Below are positions 27,009-51,292 of a stretch of DNA of 64,000 nucleotides, one piece after another. Source of the stretch: Marsupella aquatica (Eukaryota; Plantae; Marchantiophyta); NCBI GenBank assembly GCA_973895155.1, contig OZ316893.1, positions 21,250,955 through 21,314,954 of the forward strand, given 5' to 3'. Under the pieces are notes generated by a model. It ran no database searches and was not told the origin of the DNA. It saw nothing but the letters and a program-made list of their open reading frames with translations. Position numbers and translations under genes: made by a program. How positions within the stretch are numbered: position 1 is the first letter of the stretch; every line of letters starts with the position of its first letter.

Positions 27009-30000
27009 TTACTCATGCTGTGGTTGTAAGAAATTGAAGGCGGCGTTGTCCCGTAGCAGTGGAGGAGCATCCACTTCTGACAAATCTACCTCTGTCATCG
27101 CCTTTGATATGTCATCCACAGTGAATGGAATACTGCGCAGAAAAAAACAAATACTAACTTCGTCAATAGTGTCACTCTGGGTTGCCTGAATAAAGACAAC
27201 CCACCTAGCATTCTAAGTGGTCAAACAAACCTTGACCTTACAAAACTCAAACAACATCGTGGACATTCCTTCGTTCACTGTTTACATAAGACAGGTCTGC
27301 CAGAATATTCGAACCTTGAGTCATCATCCAGCAAAAACGAGTTGCTGACGGCGCTATTGGAATCTTCAGTCATCAATACTCTCATATTTGCAATCACCTG
27401 CAAGGCATCAATGAGAATTTAGAATCAGATACATGCATAAGGCAATACAGCCAGTTTTAGCTGAGTGTATGCACAAAGAAAGTGATTCTGAACCCACCTC
27501 TGGAGAGACACTGTGGGTACCATACTTGTCATCCCAGTACATAGTGCTGATGCGGTAGAGTTGTTGTATACTTAGAACCTGAAGCACAATTCAATTTCAG
27601 AACGTCTTGAAACAGAGCATCTTGGAAACACAACTGTGACAACCATTGAAGTGACAAGAGTACGCTATAGTGCATAGAATTGGCGGAATGCAGGAGAATT
27701 AAGGAAGATCTGAGGTACTTCACATACCGGACAAAGATCGTGTGTTATCTCATCAAGGGACTTCTTGGGTTTTTGATGTATGACCTGAAAACAACCAACA
27801 AAAATAGGAACGGGACCACATGAGAACTTGACAAAAAACAACAGGAGTTGTCGAGAATATGAACCACAAGTGGGGACAAGATGAATTTGCAGAACATATA
27901 TGACGTTTCCGCACTACTCTAGCATTCCCAACCTTTTCTACCTCGACAGTACCTCTCAAACACACCTGAATGAAAAAATCCTACTTGGGCCAAATGACAG
28001 CAGGAAAAGGGTGCCAGGAACGGCGATTTTAATAAGCAAAGCATTCACTCACCAAAAACCCAACAGCTTGTCGGATGTACTTGAGCTCATCCCAAGACGA
28101 GCCGGCATACTGCAGATGAATGCTCCTATAATTAGTCCTTGAGTTAATTGATTCGACCGACCTCGATGACCAATATATTCAATATAGTTCAATACAGAGA
28201 TTACGTTGCAATGTCAGCTGCATTCATCCACAGGTTTATTCACAAGCGGAGCAATTTACCTCCTCAGAAGCATCGTAGATCCAGTGTTCAAGCTCAGCAA
28301 GCCCTGCCTTCACATACTCTCCATTGCTAAACGAGCAGCATTCTCGTCTCAAAAGCAAACTGTTGTTCCAGTCAGTTCATAGTCATTAAATTAATCAAAT
28401 CTGGCATTCAATTCTTCGTACGATGTAATATAGGTTTAAGTAGACTTGTGAAATCTAAAGCTAGAAGACCGTACAATAACAGAACAGGACAGACCTGTTA
28501 AAAAGCTGTACATTGATGAATGAAAATATTTGCGTGAAGAGCTTGCGAACCAAGAAGGATGGCACCTATAAGCACCAATAGACAAAAAAGGGTCAGCTAG
28601 CTATTAACACGAGATTTCAGAACTCTTCATGTATCTCTTTGGAATAACAAAGGCAACGATTGACTGTCGTGCCATACTGAGACTCGAGGGAACCCAAGTG
28701 TAAAAAAGTTAGGTCTTGTGTTCTTGGACAACTCACATGAGTAGCTTTCAATGTGCTCAGGAGGGAGCTCAAGCTGCTGATAATGCTGTGCCAGTGACTG
28801 CTCAACGTTTGTTGATTCGACATATTGCTGACGGGTGACCTTGATGGCATTTTACCAAGGGTAGCCCTAGATGACCTTGGTGCCTGTATGACACAACGCA
28901 GATCGTCGAATTAGTCCTCACATAAAATCTCACAATTGAACTATTTACCTACCAATTGTAATTTACTATTATCCTTAAAATTGCCGTTGAACCAGAAAAC
29001 GTCCTGGCACACCTGAATGCAAAGACTTAATAAAGGCGATATCTCCTTCTTGAGGTTGTCTCGTATCATTCCATAAATTTTCTCAACATAAGCAGTGAGC
29101 TGCTGCTTAAAGAGCAAGGCGGGATATTTCGCCTCCACTTGCCGCAAAACATCCAATCCACCCATAATCGCTCCATTTCCGAAAGAAACTCCTCCCCCAG
29201 AAGGGGATGACCGGAAACCCTGGGTAATATACCACAAGTAGATCATCAGATGAACGGCTCACACCTTACCCAGCTACGGATTTAGAATCCTGAACAGAAC
29301 TTTAAAAAGCACTTCCACAGGCTCAGTGATGCTTCTAACTTCAGAACCAACAGTCAATCTACGTGTTCTGCAAACCATTCGTGTTAACAAAATGTCTGAC
29401 ACAATGAAAGGGCTGGCGATGACATCTATCCCACGGCAAAGCTCGTACTTGTGTCATGCGTCCAAACAGGGTGACAGAATTGGGTCTGCGACGTTGTGGG
29501 GTTCCACCCGCGGCACCAGTTGCTTTTAATGTGCGTTGAAGCAGGAACAGTAATGTGGACGCATTTGACAACCAGTAAGACAAGACCTCATTGTTCTCCT
29601 GGCTCTGCAAGACATTCGACATGGCAGTTGGAATGATTGTTCCGCAAAGCATTTAGAGCCAAAGCATAATTATGCCACGTGTGTAGTTCCATCGTGTACA
29701 ATGCTTTAATTACATTCCTGGTGACAAATTCATACTTGCACTAATTAATTGTCAAAACAATAAAAGGTGAACTTCAGCTTTGAGCTCTTACTTCTATGGC
29801 TGTTCCCACGGTTTGAATGATCCGGTCAAATACATTAGTCCTCTCAGCTTCAAATGAGCGCCACTGGAGGAGGGACTTGTAGATAATAATTGCAGCAACT
29901 GGTCTATCATGGCTGAATCCAACATCTTGCATGACAGACTGCAAAAGCGAATCTTGATTTTCCTGTAAGATCGTCATCCAACAATTGTCCATGTGAAATA

Positions 30001-33000
30001 ACTTTCTGTGACAACATAGTCAGGCAATGCTTTAAGCAATTGGTAGACAGAATAATGAATGATTGAATCCCTTGCACCCATCTGGGGTGCTAACCCTGAC
30101 GCGACCTAGATCACGCTTCAGCGGACAGGTGCGTCTAATTCGTTCTCATGAACTACGAGAAATCGAGCAAGGATCAATCTGATTGCTATGATAACTCATT
30201 ATCAGTCAGACCTGTTCACACTAGGTCAAAATGTGAGCGAATTAGAACGCCTTATACGACATTCCTGAATCCATGCACTACTTTATACGTACAACTGCAA
30301 GCCTTCTACTTTGCAAGGAGGTCCCGAGATTGGTGAAATTCATTATAATATTCTCCTACAGAACGATGGCTCCGTACCTGTTGTCTGTCAATTAGAAGCT
30401 TCTGGCGCCTCTGTTCTGTCTCGGAGTGGTCTCTTTCAATTTGAGCAGTGGTTGGAGTCTCCGGCTAGAAAATACACGAAGCAGAGTCAGGACCTGGTTT
30501 GCTAGCCTACATTCATCATTTGTGTACCAGCTTCACCGGTCAGTCAACAGTATATTGTATTAAGTGCTATACAGTTCCAAATTTGAACATTGCAGAATGG
30601 AACCGAACGTTCCATTGAATGTGGACGCTGAGTCTATAAAAGTTTCGAAAAGTACTTACAGCAACAACTCGGTGTTCGCCATTCCCAAGATAGCCATTCT
30701 CTGGACTCCTCTGCATACCAAATAGAAAGCAATGCAGGAGTGTCCATTTGATGTAAAAAACGACGTTCACATGAGATCCAGTGGTCTAACACCAAACAGA
30801 AATTTCCTCTGGCAACAAGACCAATTTACCAGGGGACCAAAACCTTCTATCAGAAATAAGGTAACAAGAACAAATCCATAACCATGAAATCAGACTCGCG
30901 AAAATTGAAAACAAGCAAAAATGTCCATCAGTTTGCTGAAGTTCGCAAACATCGTTATCTAATATTACCTGAAAAACTGTGGTTTTGAAACGACTACCAA
31001 GTCCCTTGGTCGGTGACATGACCAACGTTTGCTGGCGTAGAACTTGATTCTCTGACTCCATATTCGAAAGCTTCTCTTCCAGCCTAGAAAGGTAGACGAA
31101 AATGAAGATCAGATTAGTTTCCACTCCATTAAGGATATAGCGCGAAAATTGGACTATCATTTGGAATGACAAACAAATTCGAGGTTGATAAACAAGTAGT
31201 CGACACACGCGGAGTTTCCAATGCTAGAACAATGTAAAACATTTCACACGATACACCCAATGATAGAGTTATGCTAGACATGGTCCAGAAACTAGAACAC
31301 CAACATAAAACAAATGTAGATCAAATAAGGTGCAATCTCCGTGATAATTCACAGCTCTTGGCAGAATCAATCTTTATTCCAGAAATGTGTATACAAGTAC
31401 AAGGTTGATTCAGAACTTCTGATGGTCAATTTTACCCTTCGGGCTCTAGTTTTCTTCATCAGTTTTCTACAGTGTCGAAAAGATTTCCTAGAATAATTTA
31501 AATGCCTCTCTAGAAAGGCTCTCGCAACTCGCGATACTTTACAGTGGATCCTTTGACCCTTTCTTGTTCATGACTGCTAATCGAACCTTCTGCTTGAAGG
31601 TAAATCTGACTTCCACGCAGAGAATGAATATGTCGAACATAAATCCTATCCATGACTAGTACTGGATGTTAGTTTGCAAATCTAAATTAGGGAGGGAGAT
31701 ATAAATAGACAACTGATGAGAGGTGCATCTATTCTACCCGGCATAGAAGTACAAAAGAATTCTGCGTTTATCAGAAGAGGACTCTGATGACAGAAGGTTG
31801 CCTAAGCCTGCTAGGTGTAGGACTTGAAGGACATTTGGTCTCAGAGCTTTGATATGTCCTCTGATAGTCTACGAATTGTGCCACTAGAGGATCGACGCTT
31901 CTCAATGGGATTCTTGTTGACTGAGATGGAGGAGTTTTCGTGTCTTTCACATTTGGAGATGAGAAATAGCCTTTAGCTAGTCTTGGAGATGCAGGAGGAG
32001 AAGGCCTTAACGACGGGGAAGGAATCCTGGATATGGAAGAGGTAGAATTCCGCCTTGAAGGGGAAGGAAGCCGGGGTGACGGTGATGCAAGAGTTGGCTT
32101 TGCTGATGGGGATGGAAGTCTGGGCGATGGTGATGATGGAGTACGCTTTGCTGATGGGGATGGAAGTCTAGGCGATGGTGATGGTGGAGTACGCTTTGTT
32201 GATGGGGATGGAAGTCTGGGTGATGGTAATGCAGGAGTGCGCTTAATTGATAGGGATGGAAGTTCAGGCGATGATGATGCAGGGGAGTGCGTTGGTGATG
32301 GGGGTGAAAACCTGGGTGATAAAGATGCAGGAAGAGAATGCCTTCGCGATTGAGATATAGTAGAAATCACTTGGTTACTGCGAAATCCCCCCTTCAACAA
32401 GAAGGCGTGAGGTGCTGGGGGTGTTACAGGTGCTACTGTATCACCAGAAGAAGAGTCGCTGGATGAATCAGAACTTTTCTCGCGAACACTCAGAGGATCG
32501 GGACAAAACTTGACAGGCTTGAGAGAAAGAGAGCTTTCCAGTGCTTTATCTAGTTGCCGAACAGAGAGAAGGGCTTTCGTTGTAAGGGATTCTCCTGATG
32601 AGAGGGACTTCGGTGAAGGTTTTCCACGAGGATAGTGCAAGTCTTTCCCTCGTGTTGGACGAAACTTTGCGGAACCATTAGAGAAGGAGGTTGATATGGG
32701 TTGAATCCTGCCACCACAAGAATCACAGAGTGGCTTCTCTGGATCAGGAAGTTTTGCAACCCCATTTGGAAGTGGGGAAGTGGCATCAGGGAGTAGAGTC
32801 AGCAAATGGTTTGAAAGTGGGACGAGCCAATCCTCGGGCGTCTCACAAGGCATCTCTAATAGTTGGAAGGGCTTAGAAAGCCCACCAGACAGGCTGACAC
32901 CCAAGAGTTTGGTGAAATTGTCTTCATTTTTGTGGGGGGAGAGTAAACCCTCCAACATTTCAGAACACAGCTTCGAATCTTGCGCACTGGGCGCAAGTCC

Positions 33001-36000
33001 ATGAAGCTGGCTGCCAAGCCCCCACATGGGTCTTCGTAAACCGTTGGCCAGCCTGTCAAACAGAAGGGTTAGGGTTAGAAGTTGTTGCCTAACGGGTTTA
33101 GATGTCTCCTGTTAGCAACACTCGACCATTCCAATAATGCACTATGGCATTATCAGAGAAGTGATCGACGACAACTACCATGTGATTCATTAGTTTTCAC
33201 CAAAGTTATACAAATTGGGAAGATTGGCCACAAGCTTTGAAGGTAAAAGGTGAAGGCTCTATCCAACCTATTCACGGCCTCCTGCATCTGTTCAACCTTA
33301 GCCTCTGCCTCTTCTGCCCGTCGTGCCCTGTCTTCACTTTCCTTCTTCGCTTCAGCATACTTGTTCTCTGCTTCAGCAGCCTCGGCTGTTTTCTTTTCAA
33401 GAGATTCAATCATGGCCTGCCGAGACCCCAATATTAATCAGAGGTTCTCACAACATTTACAGAGAGTATCCATCAACAGCAGTTGCAGGTTTTTCCTCCA
33501 CGAAACAATCACAGAAACCCAGCAGAGAACACCCCTAAAGCTGAACCGTAAAAGGTACGAGTGTCAATGGAATACCTTGAGAGCATTGTTGTCCGCTATC
33601 AATTTTTCCACCTTAGCATCCGTGGCTTCAACAGAAGGAACTCTCTCAGCAGCAAGAACAGCCTGCCCAAGGGCAGCCTTATTTGATGCTCTTTCATTTG
33701 ACAGATCAGCACTTGCAGACTGAACTTGCAACTGCATCTCATGCATAGTAGCTTGAAGCTTGGAAATTTCTTGGGTCTTGGCGTCTTCAAGATCAGTCTG
33801 CAATTATCAAACACAAAGAGAGTCACTAATTATCAGAATGAAAGAGATTGTATTATTGCGCTCCAGCAGCAGCAACATGTATAATTCTTGGTTAAGACAC
33901 AACAAGATCACAACAAGAGTGAGCATCAATAAACCGCAATCACACCTCTGATACTGTTGCCACTTACAATGGAAAGCAAATTTAGGCCTTTTAAGAGGAT
34001 CCCAATCATAGATCAGAAACAGCACTTTGAGATAGCCCAAGACTTGCATCATGCAGTAACGAAATCAGATACATGTCGCTGAAAGACTGAACCGTTTATC
34101 AGTCAACGATTCCATTCGTAAAGTAGGGTTCTTACCCGCATTCGTTTCTCCAACTGCAGCCGCCATGTAAGCTCCTCACATTTTTTCTCAAGCATGGTCT
34201 TGGCTGCTTGCAGTGCTCCTGTTTCCTTAGCAGCCTAAGAAAAATTTTAATAACCCAGGTTAGCTCAACGAGAAAGAAAATTCCCATACACAGTACACCA
34301 TCATCTACACCGAAGTTTTCAGAGAGGACAAACCTGCTCAGACACGGTATTGGGACACAACTGCATTTACAAGAAAACTTCAATTGCAAAGAAACAGACA
34401 AGACTAGGAACACAGATAGTAACACAGGACATTTCTGCTGCGAGAACTCACTCTGCAGCCATAGGCATATTCAACACAAATAATCAACCACACTCACCAT
34501 TTTGAGGTTTCTGAGCTCTTTCCTAGCCACCCTGCTTCGCCATGCACACTGAAATGTAATAGCAGACTTCCGTAGATTCTTGTAGTCGGAGCGAGCTTTA
34601 TATCCTCGCAATTGTGTCTGAATAGATCAATAACATAAATACAAACCAGACACCAATGGAAAGTGTCAGTCTGAAACTTCAAACCATCAGACACTCAACT
34701 GACAGTGCAACTGAGAGGTGATATAGATATCCGTGCAAGGTTTGTATCAGAACGCAAAAGACCTCACATCGACGTATCTTCAAGCTTCGTAGCTACGCAC
34801 ATCACACAATTATAAGCTTTCTTCTTAGTGGAGAGTGCAATCGGCAGAGAGAGTACAAGTCAGGCCATACCTGCATTTTGATAGCAGCTTTTGTTTGACG
34901 TCGGAGTCGATACTCTTTGCGCGCAGCCATACCACGTACTCCAGACTGTATAACAATAGTTGCTTCGCGAGTTCTGTGATATGACTTTTGTGCTTGCCAT
35001 CTTCGAACATTTTTCTGTATAGCAACAGCTGCTGCTTCCTCTCTCATACCTTGATATAACTTTCGTGCGAGTCTCCCTCTCCAATGGGCCTGAATCGTTA
35101 TTGCAGCTTTCCTCTTGGCTCTGAACTCTTTTTGAGCCAGGAATGTACGAACTTGGCGCTGGACTATCCTTGCAGCATTGCTCAATACTTCGGCCCTCTT
35201 AGCATCCAGCTCTGCCATCTGGCCAGCCCTCAGAAAGACCTTCGTCTTTCCAACCTGATAGTTTGTCAGACCCATTTTCTGCAAAAGCTTCTCGGTAGCA
35301 CTCTTTTCATCATAATTTCCCTCAAGAAGTTCTGATGCTAATAGGCTAAATCTGTCGATGAACTCATCAAACGTCCGTCTCGTAGGATATCCAGCACAGC
35401 TGATTCTGACAGCCTCAAGGACACCACCACATCGAAGCTGCTGCAACACATTGGCGTTTTCGAAACGGCCGGGTTTGTTGAACATATTTGGTTTCACGCA
35501 TCGAATGTAGTGTGGCTCTGTTGTGTTCAGAGTCTCCATCAGTGCTTGAAGTTGTTGCTTAAATCTTGTACCAATCGAGGAGAACTTGTAAGAAGACTTG
35601 GAAGACTCATCAGAAGGTGGTGGAAAAAGCCCCGCCACGAATGGGCAATCTGATGAACCCAGCAAAGCTTGATGTTCAGCAACAACGTAGTCCTTATTCT
35701 TGTCTAGGAAAAGATCCGTCTGGTATGTTACATCCCCAGCATAGTGACTGATGGTGAAATCAGTCTGAGCAAGCTTTGGTTTGCTGAAACGCTTGTTTTT
35801 ACTGAAGCTCTGGAACAATTTCGTTGCAAATGTCTCATTTGTGGCCTTGGGGAACATGCTGCAGACAAATGTACCAGAGCAGGTAAGCTGTACGTTGAAC
35901 GAATGGGATAAATCATTGATAAAACAACATCCTAGCAAAGTGGCTTGCATCTTGCACATGATTGGTACATCCATTGCTGATTCAATTTTGTAGAAACTAC

Positions 36001-39000
36001 ACAGTTTGAAGAAGGGATTACAACTCAAACTATCGAGCACACATGTAGTAATGGACATGCTAAGTCACGAGAATTCATCATACCAGGCTTCATCAAGAAG
36101 GGCGATGATACCCAGAGGCTTCTGTAAAATTAGTCAGACCAGCATTTTAGAAGATAAGATAAATACGAGCAACGTTCCCACAAAATTGTTAAAGGGCATG
36201 CAATTTCATAACCAACTACATCCTCATAGCTCAAGAGATAAGTAGCAAACAAGTTAAGATCGCAAGGACCTTCTCTATGAGATCCAGAACATCTTGGTTG
36301 TCGACAAACTCAATGTAGCTCCAGTCAATAGCTTCTTTGGTGTACTCGTCCTGTTCCATCTTGAACACATGCTACAGAAAGCAACCACACGGTGTCACTG
36401 TTTAGCAAAGTTTGCGCACATAAGAGTAGACAATCAATAAAAATGTCCCACACAGACAAGGCTCATGCATCCAACAACCGACCAAGCATTGCCGTCGCCA
36501 GCATATCATCCTAACTGTTCTTACACATTTGTCTCCAATCAAGTCAGCACACCTGATTGAAATGCTGTTGCAGCTTCTCATTGGCAAGATTGATGCAAAA
36601 TTGCTCGAAGCTGCTCGGTTCATGAAAGGGTCAACAACAAGGATTGATAAGACTCCTATTCACTCAATTTGCAACATAGAACTGCAGACAAATGCCTTGC
36701 GCCAGCACCAGTCAACTACCTCGGTTGACTCATAACTCCAGAATGGATCAAAGCTCCAAATAGCACAGAAAGTAAAAAATAAAAGTTAGGACCATGACAA
36801 GATAGCTTATGAAAGATAATCGAACATCCTCCTACCTGTTAACATTGAAGCTCTCAAAACCATAAATATCAAGAACTCCCACAAGAGAAGTTGAGTCGGG
36901 ATCTTGTCCAATGGACTTGTTCACTTTGTCAACAAGCCTGTTCAGTGCACAACAATCCTGTCATGTAAATCAAGTGACAGTGAAGCTGGCCAAGGCAACC
37001 ATCATCATGCGCAAGTCAATTGACATTTTAAACTTCAAACAGACCACAAACCTTCAGATGAACTGCAAAAATTAGAAGTAGTAATGAACTAATGCAGCAG
37101 GTCAGGGTGAGGCACCCTGGTCTTACCAATCAAACAAACGGGAATAGAGTGTCTTTGCAAGTGTATCTCGGTTTGTCGCAGCAGCCACTGAATCAAGGGT
37201 TTTGGTGATGTTCTCATCCCGTGTAACAATGATTCGCTCACAAAGAGAATCGAGAAGATTCTTCACGTTGCACCTACATTTTTATAAACGGAGAAAACTG
37301 TGAGACAGACCAGGATACTTAATACAAGTATTCAAGACAGTTTCTGTAAACCAATGTTTGACTAAAAAACACGACTTGACAAAAGGAATGGACTCCTCCA
37401 ACAGCCTATTGAGATGGATCCACATTGAGCCAAAACACCCATGACCAATATCCTGGAGACAACTGAAACATACTTCAAGAGCTCAGCTACTGCTTCAAGG
37501 TGCAATTTAGACTGATCATCCTTCAGAGCTGAGGAATCGTGCTCTTTTCCAGGAATAAAATCGACATTCCCAAGATGCAATATGGCAGCCACCACCCGAA
37601 AAATTGCTTCCTGAAACGATAACACCAACTCGATGAGATGGTCCAAAACCTTAGTAACGCAAAATCGCAAGTACTCCAAAAATTCCAATTACGTCAGAAC
37701 CAGGGGGTAATGCAGCCTCGTGCAGTGGGTATGATTTCAATTTCGGATCTTCACTCAATGTGTTTAGATGGACAGTCCAGTTGTCATTGTTGTTAAAAGG
37801 TCCAGTGATCTGACTTAAAGCCTTCCGTCAAAAGTATAACAAATGCCCGACTACATACAAAGTTAACTCTCTTTGAAAATAGGACGATACCTGTTCTTCA
37901 GGGCTTATCCCGACGACATCCATTGCTCTTCTAGTCTTCACATACTCCCGTGCATTATTGACATTATTCAACTCAAACACAGGACTTTGATTCAGATAGT
38001 GAAAACTTCGAGGATCACCAAGCTTGTACTTTTCACAGTCCTGCAATATTTCAACAAAGAGGAAAGAAGGAATAAGCAAGACGAAGATACTTTAAAATTT
38101 CCTTGACTTTCTGGTAAATCCATGTTTCAGCACAGCTTCAACTTGTCATCTTTCAAATGTCCTACTCACTTACCTCTGGCGAAGCACACAACTGATAGAA
38201 GCAATGATAGTTCCGCTCAGGATCTGCAATTTGTACAACTCGAGACCTTTCCAGAAGATACGTCCGGATCGCTGCTCCGGATATCCTCCCACTTTGATCA
38301 AACTGTATCTCGACAAACTTTCCGAAGCGACTGCAGAACAAGGCCCTGTGATGTCATTATCTGTTTGGACAAAATTCTAAAATCCAAAAAGATTTCAAAT
38401 CCAGAGTGGTCCGGCTTAGGAAATACTGGGTTCAACAAATATATACACAGCATTCTGTCAATCCCTTAAAGAAGTTCAATCAGAAAGAACACCAACCGGT
38501 TCTACTACCACCACCTTACCTAGAATTGTCGTTACGAGATGTTTTCGCATTTCCAAATGCCTCAAGAAGAGGATTCGACTGCCCAAACACAATGCATCCA
38601 GCCCAAAATTGTGAGTCTTCAATAGAACCTTGTTGTTACAGTAGCTTTACCGAGCCGTGAGTTTCGTGTTGCCGACAGTTTTAAGATCAGAGGGAACATC
38701 CTTTATAGCTAGCAGATATACGACTTTCAAACTGCTTTGAAACAAGTTTCAATCAACCCACCTCTAAAACTTGTTGTTCCACAGTCCTGCCGTCTGTGTT
38801 GGCTCGTCCACCCATATAAGCCAGATACTGCATAATCAATTTTGTTGTTTCTGTCTTTCCTGCTCCACTTTCTCCACTCACCAGAATCGATTGACTTTTC
38901 TTCTCATTCATCATAGCCCTACATACACGGAAGCAGAGTGTTCCAGTTTGAATTTGTTATCTTACTGTCAAGAAAGGGCAAAGATGCGAATTCCAACAAA

Positions 39001-42000
39001 TCAACCTCGACAACCTAGTATTTTAAAACACGTAGTTCTAAAGATTGTGAAATTCAGTTATGTAGTCGGAGACTACAAACTCTTAGGTCCAAGTCTTCTA
39101 GTACTTTTGCCCAACCCTCTTGTCAACGCTCGTCCTTCTCAAGTGATGCGGTCCCCGCATAAACACTCCATATCTACGCAGGGCCATCATTAGGAAAATA
39201 CCTGTATGAACTGTCAGCAACTGCAAACACGTGCGGGCTCAACTCTCCCAAGGGAGCTCCACGGTATTGCTCCATCATGTGGTTATCATATAGGTGCGGT
39301 AGCTTTGCAAAAGGATTGATGGCAATCAAAATATTACCAGTGTATGTCTGAAAACCACAAGGGCACCCAAAATTAACCAGAGTTCTCAAAATTACTTAGA
39401 AAACAATACACGTTAGGGAAACTAACCTCATAACAAGGCTGACAGATGCACGCGCGCAACATACAAAGACAATGTGCTTGTACATGGAAAGAACTGGAAG
39501 CTACACCGCTTGTGGTCGCCGTAACATAGGCTTTATCACACAATCTGATCCCGCAATGATCTTGACCAAAATGCAGGCCCCATTTGTAAGGACTATCAAC
39601 GGCAACACCATGCCTTTGCTTGACTGATCATTCCTTGGTAGCAAAAAAAGTAGACAAAAATGCTATGCATATACGAAGAGAAAGTCGACAGCGTAGAACC
39701 CCGAATATTTGGTATTAAAGACAAGTTTAAATTAGCTTACATAGATTTCATCGAGTTCATATCTAGTTGCGAGGTTGTTCAAAACCCCAGGTTCATGTAA
39801 ATAGGCTAATTTGGTCATGTCATCCACTCCTCCTTGTTGTGCGTCAGTGTCTTTGGGATAAACATTAGAAACCAACGACGTAACCTGCAAACGTAAAATT
39901 ATACCCAATTAATAAGATGCCAGATTTAGAACATCCCATGATTCAATTGCCAAGATAGCATGTACAGAGCCCGATACCACTCAAATTTCCATTCCAACTA
40001 CATGTTCCTATGTTCAAATTTTCCTGCTCATAAAGTACGAAGGTCTGCGTCAAAGAAAGCTCCCTGAAAGGGAAAAATCCCACCGTTTTGCCACCCTGGA
40101 TCTGAGCCTTCACTTGCTTTCCATTAAATTCCACAACCTCGGCCTCTACCCAAGCTGAGGTGGAATCTTCCACCCATACTTGAGACCCGACGGTAATATT
40201 AACAGACGCCTGCATCAACAGGATATCACGAGGATAAGTATTTTAGTGGTCCATCAAATAACCACCTTATGAGGACTTGAACCCCTCGACAGTGTGTACC
40301 AAAAGACAAATTAGAAGAAATCCCGTGAAAATGATATCATGTTAGCTCACATCAACTGAAAATTTGCAAAATACATATTGTTGTGCGGCCAGCTGAACTC
40401 AATTCCTATGTAGCCCTTGACAGAGATGTCAGTGCGGTACTCCAGCATCCAACGCAGATTCGCAGCTATAAGAGGCATGGCAATATCTTGAAAGGAGATT
40501 GACTGTCCATTCCTTTTCCATCTGAGGACCAACAGGAAGGAGTGTCCCCCAAATTCTCTTCGAAACGGACGTCATTGCTAAAAACCCGTCGAACTCTATT
40601 GCGAGCAAAGAGTAGGTTAAATAACCCACTCCTTGACTCAACTCCGTCCCAAGGTTTCATAGACTCTTGAGCTTCGGGACAGAAAGAGTTTTCAGGAATC
40701 CATTCACCTTATTGATGCGGGTGATAGACCATGCTGCTCGACGAGTAACGTTTCTCGTATACCTTAACGTGCAGTTCGCTGAACGACACGATTTGCTAGC
40801 TTTCCAGCAACCTCTGACAACAGACACCCTGCCAAATCACTCGACTTCCTTTAAAGTGTCCCAAGTAAGGACTCTATCGTATAATAGCTATAGGCAGCCC
40901 AATAACTGGGAACCCCCGTTCATTCCACGGCTCGGTCGCCTTATCCAACCAGGGATGATTTCTCTTACTGAATGTCGCTTGTTCCAAGGGATCCCCTCGG
41001 TACCTTTTGGGAGGGGGTGAAGTACTTGAAGAGCAGAAATTATTAAAAAAATCATGCCAAACCCCAATTTCCAACCTTGATCCACTAGTCATGTGCATCG
41101 GCCTAAATCGAGCATCAACTTGAAACAGGATGCTAACAGATTGAGGCAGCAATATAGCGCTAAAACCTGAATCAATCGTCGTCCAGTGTTCCAGGGGGAA
41201 ATGATTAGGTTGTGGACCAAAGCCGGGAACTCCGGGTTTGTCAGCACTGGACCTTGTACGAGGAATTTTCATCGGCAGCCTATTTTCATCCCCCTAAACT
41301 GTAAACTGGCCGAATCGGTCCCACGTCCAGGACTAATGGCGAATGAATATAAATCACCCGGACCAGCAAACAAGATACATAGCGATTATAAGAATGACAT
41401 AAAACTCAACTCCTAAACCAAAATCAGCAATTGGCGACGAGATATTTTAACCAGGTTTGGTGAACGAGACGGTCCACAAGTATGGTGCTTAGTCTCAAGT
41501 GAGGCAGATTCTTGACGACTGGATGCCTAAGTTATAAAACGGGTTACGAGAGTGACAACACTGTACATGGTCTGCACGGCTGCGATCCATGGCTGTCCAT
41601 CGGGGTCCATCAGTCAGAGTGACAATTTCCTATCCTCAATTTCTTATCGTGCACATAACTGCACGGACCATGCCCTGTACCCCAACACTAACATTGTGAA
41701 CAGAATCTATCCGTTGCAGACAATATCATAAATCCCATGCTGACGAACAAGGGACTTACCAAAGCCAAGCGAAAAGCCAGAGGAACTGCAGGGATCAGAC
41801 CTACCGGCTGCTTTAAGTCCAAGCACCTAAAGCAAGAACTAGCCCACCCTGGAAAGCGCGTTTGGTGAAAACTAGCGTTTGAAGTGCAAGGGCCAGCCGT
41901 AGTAAACAAATTCAGGCTTGAGGAACTATTACAGCAGACATGAGAGGCAGCTCCCCATAATTCGTTGGTGCGAAACAAACGAACAATGAAGGGCGGCATT

Positions 42001-47178: not shown

Positions 47179-50100
47179 TGTTGAGCATAGACGACATTCG
47201 TAACGGCAAGCCCATGAACCATCCAACGTACAATAGTCGACACAAAGAGATACGTGGTTCACCTCCACATGAGGCTACGTCCACGGGAACACACAAGAGC
47301 TTTATTGCACTCTAGGCCGACCAGCCATACCAAGCATCCACAACACAAGCTCTCTCTATCTCTCAATTAGCTCCGTAACAATGAACCTAAGTTCCACCAG
47401 GGTCTGGCATCAGCCCTGGCTTAATACACAACAGCACTACCGCTAACATTAGCTAAGTCCTAACCCAAGTTAGACTAACTGTAGTTAGCTCATGAGTCAC
47501 AAGACTAGAGCAATATCTAACAAACTCCCCCTTGACTCTTGTCTTGGGGACTAGACTAAATGCTACCATATGGAATCCTCAGCGGGAAGTTCTAGACAAT
47601 CACCAAACCAGGTCTCCCCCTAAAAACCACAAGGGTTAACTAAGGGTTAACTAGAACTAAGCCGTAGCCAAACAGGAATGAGTAAGTCATATACAAATAG
47701 TCACACATTGCTAAATAACTCTACTTGCACTACAACTGCAAAACCTGCAAAGTAGCACGGTGTCTTGAGAAACTCTCCAAAAGAATCACTTTGGTAAAGG
47801 CATCAGCGGGATTGAGTTTTCCATCAATCTTGACTAGCTCAAAAGTTTTATCAGACACTGCTTGCCTGGTAAAATGGTACCTGATATAATGTGCTTCACC
47901 CTGCTATCCATCACCTGGTTAGCAGCCAAGTGAAGAGCACTCTGACTATCACAGTTTAGAGTCATTTTGCCATGCTCTAAACCCATCTTCGCCATCAACT
48001 TGTCCAACCAAATTGCTTCCTTTGCTGCTTTTGCTGTTGCAATATACTCTGCTTCTGTAGTAGACTGAGATATACACTTCTGCAAGGTGGATTTCCAACT
48101 GATACATCCTCCTCCAAGAGTAAATACAAACCCAGTTGTAGACCTCCTTGTATCCACACAGCCTCTATAGTTAGAATCTACATAGTCAACCAACGTTCTA
48201 TCTGATTTGACATCAAATAGTAATCCATAGTCCTGTGTACCCTTCACATACCTGAGAATCCATTTCACAGCTTCCCAGTGTACCTTCCCTGGATTTGACA
48301 TGAAAATGCTAACCTTGCCCATTGCTAGGGCCAAGTCAGGCCTAGTACAAGTCATCAAATACATCAGACTGCCTACTGCCTTCTCATAAGGAATCTTAGC
48401 CATCAGACCTTTCTCCACAACATCCGTAAGAGAGAAAGCCGATGATAACTTGAAATGTGAAGCTAAAGGAATACTCACTGGCTTACAGTTCTTCATGTTC
48501 AATCGTGCAAGTACTTTCTTCGCATACTGGCCTTGACTCAAGCACAACTGTCCAGTCTTAGAGTTCATAAAAATCTCCATCCCTAAGATCCTCTTGGCCT
48601 TACCAAGACCCTTCATCCTGAATTCAGCATTCAATTTTGCCTTGAGACTGTCAACCTCAGATTGATCTTTAGCCACAATCAGCATGTCATCCACATAAAT
48701 AACCAGAATGATGAAACCAAACACATCATTCTTGACTGATTTTATGTACACACAAGGATCATACACCATCCTTGTAAAACCTTGAGCAAACATGAAATCA
48801 TCAAACCGCTTGTTCCACTGTCTGGGAGATTGCTTCAATCCATACAAGGACTTGAGCAATCTGCAAACTAAGTTCTCTTGGCCCTTCTTCATAAAGCCTA
48901 GTGGCTGTCTCATGAAGATCAACTCTTCCAAGTTGCCATAGAGAAAAGCATTAACAACATCCATCTGATTCATCACCAGACCAAAAAACACAACAAACTG
49001 ACACAAGATCCGAATTGTGGAATATTTAGCCACCGGTGAAAAGACCGTATTGTAATCCACTCCTTTCTCTTGAGTGAATCCCTTGGCAACAAGCCGTGCC
49101 TTGTAGATCTTATCTCCACCCTCTGAAGGATTGTCCTTCAACTTGTAAATCCACTTGCTGTCCACCACTTGCTGACCTCTTGGAAGCTCCACCAGCTCCC
49201 ATGTCTTGTTGTCACTCAAAGATTGCAACTCCCTCTGCATTGCTGCATTCCACTCATGCTTCTGCTCTGAAGCACAAGCCTCACTGTACGAAGAAGGCTC
49301 TCCTTCCAAGATCAAAGCCATGTCATCTTCATCAGGTGCAATGTCAATATCATCTAGCTTAGATGAGTCTGCCCATTGACCATACCTGGTAGGAGCTCTA
49401 GTAGAACGACTGGAAGTTCTTCTAGTAGATGACTCAGGCTGATCTGTTGCTACTGCTGGTTGAATTTGAGGTACCCCAACAACAATATGCTCCTCTTGTT
49501 CCATCACAGGAACTAGCTCCAATCCCAAAGCTTCTCCATCTCTCTTGTCATGAACAGCATCATGACTAATCTCCCCCTCAACCCGGTCCGGGATGGGAGA
49601 TTTCCCCTTGTAAGTATGGGAGTCCTGAGAACTCTCCCCCTCCTTTGATGATCTGGACTCATTAAAGGACACATCTCTATTGACAATTAGTTTACAGGTT
49701 ACTGGATCCCATAACCTATAACCCTTCACACCTTTCTGATAGCCAAGGAAAATGCACTTCTTCGACTTGAACTCCAGCTTGGATCGAAGCTAGGAAGGTG
49801 TAAGCACATAAGCATCACATCCAAAAATCCTCAGATGTGAGTAATTTGCTGGACGCCCGTACCTCATTTCAAATGGCGTCTTGAATCCAATAGAACTGGA
49901 TGGAGAAAAATTTACCAAATAAGCTACAGTGTTGACAGCTTCAGCCCAAAACTCATGTGGTAAGCATGATTGACTCAACATACTCCTCGAGCGGTCCAAT
50001 AGTGTTCGGTTGAGTCTCTCAGAAACACCATTCTGCTGAGGAGTATAACTTGTTGTGAGATGGCGAGTAATCTCATGCTCCTTACAATACGTTCTAAATT

Positions 50101-51292
50101 CCTCAGAACTGTATTCACCGCCGTTATCCGATCGAAGATATTTCACCTTATTACCAGTGTGATTCTCAACTTGGGCTTTCCACTCCTTAAACGTGGCAAA
50201 AACATTAGACTTATTGTGTAGAAAATATATCCACACATACCTTGAGTAATCGTCTATGAACGTGACATAGTATAACCGTCCAGAATATGAGGGAGTAAGG
50301 GCTGGACCCCACACATCACTATGTACATACTCAAGTACCTCCTTGCTGGTGTGAGTTCCAACTCCGAAGGGTTTCCTGTGCTGCTTCCCTAGCACACAGT
50401 GCTCACAAAATTCCAACTTACAAGATTGCAAATTAGAAAGTAATCCTTTCTTCTGAAGAATAACCAAACCTTTTTCACTCATGTGGCCCAAACGGAAGTG
50501 CCACAGCCGGGCCGTCTCCTCATGAGATAAGGTTACATTGGCTTCATTACAAATTACACTGCCCTCCAAAATGTATAGATTGCTATGTCTCTTTCCCTTC
50601 AATACAACTTTGGTACCAGTTGAAACCTGAAGGACACCATTAGCAGAACTCCACTAATGGCCATTTGCTTCTAAAACTCCAAGTGAAATGAGATTTTTCA
50701 TCATGCTGGGAATATGTCTCACATTCCTCACCGTTCTTATAACACCATCAAACATCTAAAATCTAACAGATCCAAGTCCAACAACTTGACATGGGATTCC
50801 ATTTCCCATCAACACTGACCCGTTGGAAACCGTATAAGAACTGAAACAATCTCTCCTAGAGCAAATGTGAAAAGTACATGCACTATCTAGAATTCAGTCA
50901 TCACTACCTGGATTTGACACTACGTTGAGAGCATAACCTTGACATCATAATATGTCATCATCATCGAGTAAATCTACCTCATGCGAGCTCGATGCTGCGT
51001 TAGCAGAGGCAGTAGGGACCTTTACTCGACAATCCCTTTTCATGTGGCCAGGCTTGCCACAATTCCAACATGCAAGAGGCTTCCTCTCTTGCGATTTCCC
51101 TCTGGATTTGGATCTCCCCCATGATGTAGATCTAAACCTGTTCCGTAACAATGAGCCTAAGTTTCACCAGGGTCTGGCATCAGCCCTGGCTTAATACACA
51201 ACAGCACTACCGCTAACATTAGCTAAGTCCTAACCCAAGTTAGACTAACTGTAGTTAGCTCATGAGTCACAAGATTATAGCAATATCTAACA
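47179..51292 (-). mobile_element. Defective Ty1/copia LTR retrotransposon
   Basis: Domain order is zinc knuckle (CWNCGKPGHMKRDC), protease (LDSACTFH), GAG-pre-integrase and integrase (HSDVWGP, YLRSDNGGEY), RT (YKARLVAKGF, YVDDML), RNase H. In-frame stops and frameshifts are present (e.g. TAG at 49790). The 3' LTR is 47179-47522 (TG..CA), preceded by the PPT agggggagtt. Only part of the 5' LTR remains, at 51142-51292. Flanks TGAAA and TGACA form a 5-bp TSD with one mismatch. Confidence 0.95.
47730..51140 (-). pseudogene. Disrupted copia gag-pol reading frame
   Basis: ORF pieces 50945-51151, 49790-50602 and 47834-49729. The RNase H C-terminus continues in a shifted frame (RYHF...NPADAFTK) to TAG near 47730. 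Confidence 0.9.

Follow-up and report, generated by a model that had tools for sequence, protein, structure and literature searches.

A myosin XI gene of the liverwort Marsupella aquatica, contained in the 64,000-nucleotide stretch of DNA analysed here (the window), probably carries, judging from its sequence, an alternative last exon that seems undescribed in the literature and has an orthologue at the same place in the Marchantia polymorpha gene. We regard it as likely that this candidate exon is spliced to the motor exons; given such splicing, the chances that microtubules are the partner of the encoded tail appear roughly evenly balanced. The explanation that we prefer, and put forward tentatively, would be a myosin XI isoform without the DIL domain, whose basic disordered tail binds microtubules by charge and without EB1. 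The exon is a worthwhile finding; the argument built on its SxIP motifs is weak.

The host gene and its candidate last exon

The gene was modelled by tblastn with the Marchantia polymorpha protein; the exon model contains no internal stops and its product is 86.5% identical to that protein over 1,535 columns, with SH3-like, motor, IQ, coiled coil and DIL domains. Pfam was applied to the Marchantia protein and to a single exon of the window, the motor and IQ domains being matched directly in the window; judged by its full-length identity to the Marchantia protein bearing the Pfam domains, the host gene is a class XI myosin. Its features, and those of the candidate exon, are:

27009..40209, minus strand: myosin XI gene encoding 1,527 aa; 32 coding exons follow the one with the start codon
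33268..33416, minus strand: last shared myosin exon before the long intron, donor in phase 2
31084..33267, minus strand: long intron of 2,184 nt holding the candidate alternative exon
30969..31083, minus strand: next canonical myosin exon, toward the DIL tail, acceptor in phase 2
31771..33052, minus strand: candidate alternative last exon, 426 codons and a stop, with an orthologue in Marchantia
33053..33080, minus strand: candidate 3' splice site; branch-like pentamers lie at -26, -20 and -7, and the AG (33054-33053) keeps the phase of the upstream donor
33025..33027, minus strand: first in-frame ATG, the start in the Marchantia annotation of Mp8g04020

The remaining 30 introns of the model measure 100-415 nt, although length alone does not set the long intron apart, since a further, unmodelled one behind the probable start-codon exon likewise reaches about 2 kb. 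The candidate for that exon is a mini-exon at 42283-42281 (minus strand) with GT directly after it, lying about 2.07 kb before the first exon of the model. A 988-nt exon (35858-34871, minus strand) covers the last part of the motor together with the IQ region, all other modelled exons being at most 222 nt; relative to the 39 coding exons of the Marchantia gene (PMC7689712), six consecutive introns have probably been lost there. Upstream of the gene, a Copia-type retrotransposon pol (GAG-pre-integrase, integrase and RVT_2; 47834-50653, minus strand) is split between two frames by a stop. At the opposite end, a CCCH-KH-CCCH fusion can be read from a donor at 27013, which overlaps the myosin stop, into exons 25678-25524 and 24082-23256 (minus strand), whose acceptors score high (12.2 and 13.6), giving an open frame of 1,853 aa; since it matches the Marchantia isoform Mp8g04010.1, described as a cDNA-supported, RNA-binding product of 1,836 aa (PMC7689712), this little-studied fusion is conserved too. 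Together with the 86.5% identity, the shared myosin-zinc finger-KH arrangement suggests a liverwort gene.

Within the long intron, a single minus-strand open frame (33111-31771) holds the motifs SRIP, TRIP and RRHSLP discussed below. At the stop density of the other introns, 426 open codons have a probability of 4e-11 (GC of the frame, 0.50 vs 0.41). The candidate exon shows the two marks of an alternative last exon, an acceptor in phase and a frame open to a stop; joined to the upstream donor, the frame stays open and gives a product of about 1,460 aa, in which the motor, the IQ motifs and most of the coiled coil are followed by a new tail replacing DIL. The acceptor is weak: its score of 3.95 exceeds that of only 8 among the 32 true acceptors and is itself exceeded at no fewer than 8 of the 124 AG sites in the 2,184-nt intron; what supports this putative acceptor is its phase and the same junction in Marchantia, not its score.

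Searching with residues 21-255 returned, from 2,268 candidates, a single match, to a myosin XI model of Marchantia that has this sequence at the same junction (42% identity, E=2e-32), and a profile search returned one among 7,989, Mp8g04020 (Mapoly0012s0191). The latter is this very frame, entered in the annotation as a 438-aa gene in its own right, with its own stop, that encodes a hypothetical protein; it sits within the myosin XI gene Mp8g04010, in the same intron and with the same junction residue as the window exon, and in both species the frame is closed by a stop after about 430-445 codons. A further cluster member, evidently a reading of genomic DNA, runs upstream, where two residues across the acceptor position are identical. 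Of the 8 residues that separate the acceptor from the annotated Met, 6 are the same in the two species, which untranslated sequence would hardly account for; that conservation begins as far upstream as the in-phase acceptor, and not at this Met, speaks for an alternative last exon in place of DIL. The intronic positions comparable with Marchantia are four, two of them matching, too few to draw a sharp edge of conservation. The exon is thus conserved in position and sequence in one other species, and this orthologue supports the alternative myosin tail with a basic disordered end that had been proposed in the preliminary description.

Relatives from a third species were sought by a profile search of proteins of 124-419 aa, with no match at E<=1 among 7,753 candidates, and two metagenome scans for relatives of the exon confirmed 0 of 218 and 0 of 176 stretches. 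A phmmer search against 1.84 billion representatives gave five matches and no relative, four of them arising through repeat periodicity and one being a WD40-like repeat protein; this blank is weak, because the Marchantia orthologue was also not returned. A full-text search, with most subscription papers and supplements outside its scope, found no paper naming Mp8g04020 and one naming the host gene, and literature searches gave no title describing a DIL-less alternative-tail isoform of Marchantia myosin XI. The two cDNAs that Duan et al. describe as cloned from the Marchantia gene are both without the alternative exon (PMC7689712), and for that gene a 2026 paper on Selaginella mentions splicing at the N and C termini alone (PMC12872637).

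The proposed tail and its possible partners

The exon divides into two parts of very different character:

32371..33051, minus strand: sequence-conserved first half, with short conserved blocks and a conserved CxxC
31774..32364, minus strand: disordered end of 197 aa, basic (net charge +24) and rich in Ser/Pro
32056..32332, minus strand: 48-nt (16-residue) tandem repeat, 5.8 copies, with a PSPRLPSP core

The first half is the most conserved part; its first 227 aa are 49% identical to Marchantia, the first 229 residues align at z=54.6 against shuffles, and its function is left unaccounted for by a microtubule reading. For this half, Pfam gave no match, the PDB none at E<=10 and the Atlas none that was usable; Rfam gave none either, and AlphaFold yielded no confident fold for the exon (pLDDT of 35 and 41). 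Four cysteines, including the CxxC, and one histidine are common to the window and Marchantia (32716-32967, minus strand); a small metal site is possible, with no model supporting it.

Conservation of the distal part, as far as two sequences tell, is one of composition and not of sequence. Its 197 residues align to Marchantia at z=1.4, no better than shuffles, and in Marchantia the net charge is +29. The counts in the window and in Marchantia, respectively, are 29 and 34 for K/R, 5 and 5 for D/E, and 12 and 11 for PSP (2.4 expected), with 25% and 24% Ser and 22% and 22% Pro; the pI lies at the program ceiling of 12 in both species, above the value of 10 taken to mark a basic region. The pLDDT is <50 almost throughout this part, a low value that also reflects the three-sequence alignment. 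An end rich in basic residues, Ser and Pro, with few acidic residues and many SP/TP sites, had been described before at 31780..32345, and that description agrees with our counts: these 189 residues include 29 K/R and 5 D/E with 24% Ser and 23% Pro, and SP/TP sites number 26 vs 14 expected, a figure reached by 0 of 10,000 shuffles and inflated by the 48-nt repeat. Full CDK sites (S/T-P-x-K/R) in the distal part are only two.

The Marchantia protein has no apparent 16-residue array, and dN/dS among the repeat units is 0.45 in the exon frame vs 0.35-0.92 in the other frames, so that the exon frame is not singled out. An antisense open frame of 127 codons, Gly/Asp-rich (31970-32353, plus strand), is most likely a shadow of the tandem repeat. 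What selection appears to keep, from the comparison with Marchantia, is a long, basic, phosphorylatable and disordered tail rather than a four-letter motif.

According to our preferred explanation, the alternative last exon would be spliced onto the motor exons and replace the DIL cargo domain; the basic Ser/Pro tail would grip microtubules directly by charge, with no need for EB1, and phosphorylation at its many SP/TP sites may tune the binding. Such a protein would keep the actin motor, its six IQ motifs and most of the coiled coil and would, in place of carrying membrane cargo, cross-link microtubules or pull on them. In plants, a long, basic, phosphorylatable and disordered profile of this kind is that of charge-based microtubule binders. 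The language-model clusters nearest the Marchantia protein in the Atlas (scores 0.76-0.81) are MTUS2-like, AMER2 and NCKAP5, which we take to be EB1-binding microtubule proteins; since one shuffled protein in three attains 0.8, these neighbours are a lead only, and they favour neither binding through EB1 nor binding by charge.

Acidic lipids or RNA would be equally plausible partners for a basic disordered tail. The isoform might be real while its tail binds one of these other polyanions, drives condensation, or serves as a Ser/Pro spacer for a function residing in the first half, an explanation that we hold to be somewhat unlikely. It draws on the distal conservation, which is compositional only and names no partner, on the sequence conservation, which is carried by the first half, and on the cDNA-supported RNA-binding isoform of the same gene (PMC7689712). 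Nevertheless, the basic Ser/Pro composition with its PSP motifs matches that of microtubule-binding regions (PMC5288973, PMC3649978), and the Atlas neighbours, as a lead only, are of the microtubule type.

Rival readings: separate gene, EB1 motifs and internal cassette

Alternatively, the frame might form a gene of its own inside the myosin intron, transcribed from a separate promoter, starting at the first ATG and encoding a basic protein without a motor, as it is annotated in two Marchantia releases (Mp8g04020, 438 aa). We consider this unlikely, even though the ATG is conserved and the acceptor weak. Mp8g04020 RNA is reported at a low level, 1.0 TPM in thallus and, in antheridia, 1.39 (early), 1.12 (middle) and 0.51 (late) (PMC11371191), and as down in cold+dark and up in heat+dark, two of at least eight stress blocks; the host gene is absent from the sorted cold+dark and heat+dark lists that name Mp8g04020 (PMC9946954). 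Such a stress pattern fits a regulated choice of last exon and also an independent promoter. Against a nested gene, conservation extends upstream of the ATG to a right-phase AG in both species, and only ~240 nt separate the upstream donor from the ATG.

The preliminary description had gone further and suggested for the tail a binding of EB1 through SRIP and TRIP, by which the myosin would track growing microtubule ends under kinase control; it had named conservation of these motifs beforehand as one of the points on which the proposal could fall. The motifs concerned are:

32020..32031, minus strand: SRIP, two first-position changes from the repeat's PRLP, without a match in Marchantia
31906..31917, minus strand: TRIP, not clearly repeat-derived, without a match in Marchantia
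32329..32346, minus strand: RRHSLP, a pattern like that of 14-3-3 sites, no more frequent than by chance and not conserved

SRIP and TRIP lie where they had been placed, on the minus strand, and S/TxIP is observed twice vs 0.36 expected (P=0.045, 20,000 shuffles). However, the conserved Marchantia exon (one orthologous species) contains no S/TxIP, the outcome that had been named beforehand as counting against the proposal, and we now see the EB1 mechanism as distinctly improbable. The wider S/Tx[IL]P gives 2 matches vs 1.45 expected (P=0.43). Both motifs pass a nine-residue context rule, which asks for an S/T-x-I/L-P core in a basic, non-acidic context and is quoted second-hand in PMC3649978, and both have Ile; two passes are uncommon in local shuffles with an Ile-only core (P=0.007) and ordinary with the [IL] core (P=0.23). 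The Marchantia exon has two S/TxLP matches that pass the rule, of which one lies distally and the other in the middle region, a number no higher than chance would give (P=0.15). In a dimeric myosin the two motifs would amount to four copies, and the Atlas neighbours are named after proteins that are presumably EB1 binders.

SRIP itself is probably a drifted copy of a unit of this species' tandem repeat. It is found 15 residues past the last core unit, in register with the repeat, and shares 20 of 30 nt with the neighbouring unit (background mean 10, maximum 17 in 96 windows); both first-position substitutions that separate it from PRLP change the amino acid. A repeat origin means that the shuffles overstate its rarity. 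TRIP shares 15 of 30 nt with the repeat. The distal part being unalignable (z=1.4), motif turnover is possible, and the comparison is with one species. Elsewhere, all three further candidates with a credible SxIP did not co-localise with EB1 (PMC3649978), and Arabidopsis eb1a eb1b mutants are nearly normal (PMC5288973). The tail thus has two of the features of SxIP +TIPs, the core in its context (2 matches) and a disordered basic Ser/Pro region, and lacks the third, conservation in the orthologue; EB1 hitch-hiking as a later gain in the Marsupella lineage is likewise a poor prospect.

Two smaller motif claims stood in part. PSRLRQPS, reported as terminal, is present at 31792-31815, six residues before the stop, and is therefore near-terminal; the 14-3-3 pattern RxxSxP is present as RRHSLP, but a mode I site should exceed chance and be conserved, and RxxS/TxP is observed twice vs 1.49 expected (P=0.44) and is not aligned to a similar motif in Marchantia.

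Use of the exon as an internal cassette, inserted between the coiled coil and DIL, is very improbable. A Marchantia gene model of 2,086 aa (AXG93_4225s1010) has such an insert, although it is an unsupported prediction and a single member. In the window, a phase-2 GT at 32312 (minus strand) inside the exon scores 5.3, within the range of true donors, and its use would insert only the conserved half between the coiled coil and DIL; the eight highest-scoring phase-2 donors of the window include none located 3' of it, so that the Ser/Pro part is not readily spliced onward. Finally, a chance or dead intronic ORF, to which low complexity and a tandem repeat that help frames stay open and the unremarkable dN/dS of the repeat units might point, is barely credible and already largely refuted by the z of 54.6 of the first half and the frame open in both species.

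Known systems and significance

Mp8g04020 resembles the window exon in its orthologous frame, its intron and junction and its distal composition, and differs in being annotated as its own gene, without S/TxIP and without an apparent 16-residue array. Eudicot myosin-11D is, like the proposed isoform, a class XI motor without DIL and with a tail of its own; unlike the window exon, it comes from a separate gene, with a 100-aa tail in two exons, and is not a splice form (PMC3850447). Myosin-11D departs from the common gene structure after exon 25 (PMC3850447). The window gene has 32 exons and the start exon; if the six missing introns lay in the 988-nt exon, the new exon also follows exon 25, and by this exon count its junction is probably the myosin-11D departure point. 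That survey encountered no conserved alternative splicing among plant myosins (PMC3850447).

For the tail, GPT1/2 bind microtubules via basic regions, have no SxIP and track ends in an eb1 triple mutant, and BPP1-3 have basic domains with a pI of about 13 (PMC5288973). These proteins share with the tail long basic regions without a known domain, and differ from the proposed isoform in standing alone and lacking a motor (PMC5288973); no GPT or BPP protein was among the matches of the exon homologue searches. The SxIP +TIPs APC, CLASP, MCAK and Theileria p104 resemble the tail in their S/TxIP, basic Ser/Pro low complexity and nearby SP/TP sites (PMC3649978). In contrast to them, the window exon has motifs that are not kept in the orthologue, and its binding of EB1 is putative. 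The EB1 link of myosin Va runs via the adaptor melanophilin, not via the myosin's own tail. Splicing of myosin Va between coiled coil and globular tail alters what the motor binds, as is proposed here; unlike the proposed isoform, it uses short internal cassettes and keeps the cargo domain, and maize myosin splicing events map to the same general region (PMC3935558).

Well short of an even chance, in our estimate, is the broader idea that liverworts get several motors from one myosin XI gene by swapping tails, the exon adding a built-in microtubule-binding tail. If the conserved alternative last exon is true, it would show how a single gene can do work that is divided among about ten genes in flowering plants; studies of the Marchantia motor based on its tail would miss an isoform, and the annotation would be corrected, Mp8g04020 not being a separate gene. 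If, in addition, the tail binds microtubules, it would provide a direct link between actin and microtubules that is testable in a model plant with the main isoform intact.
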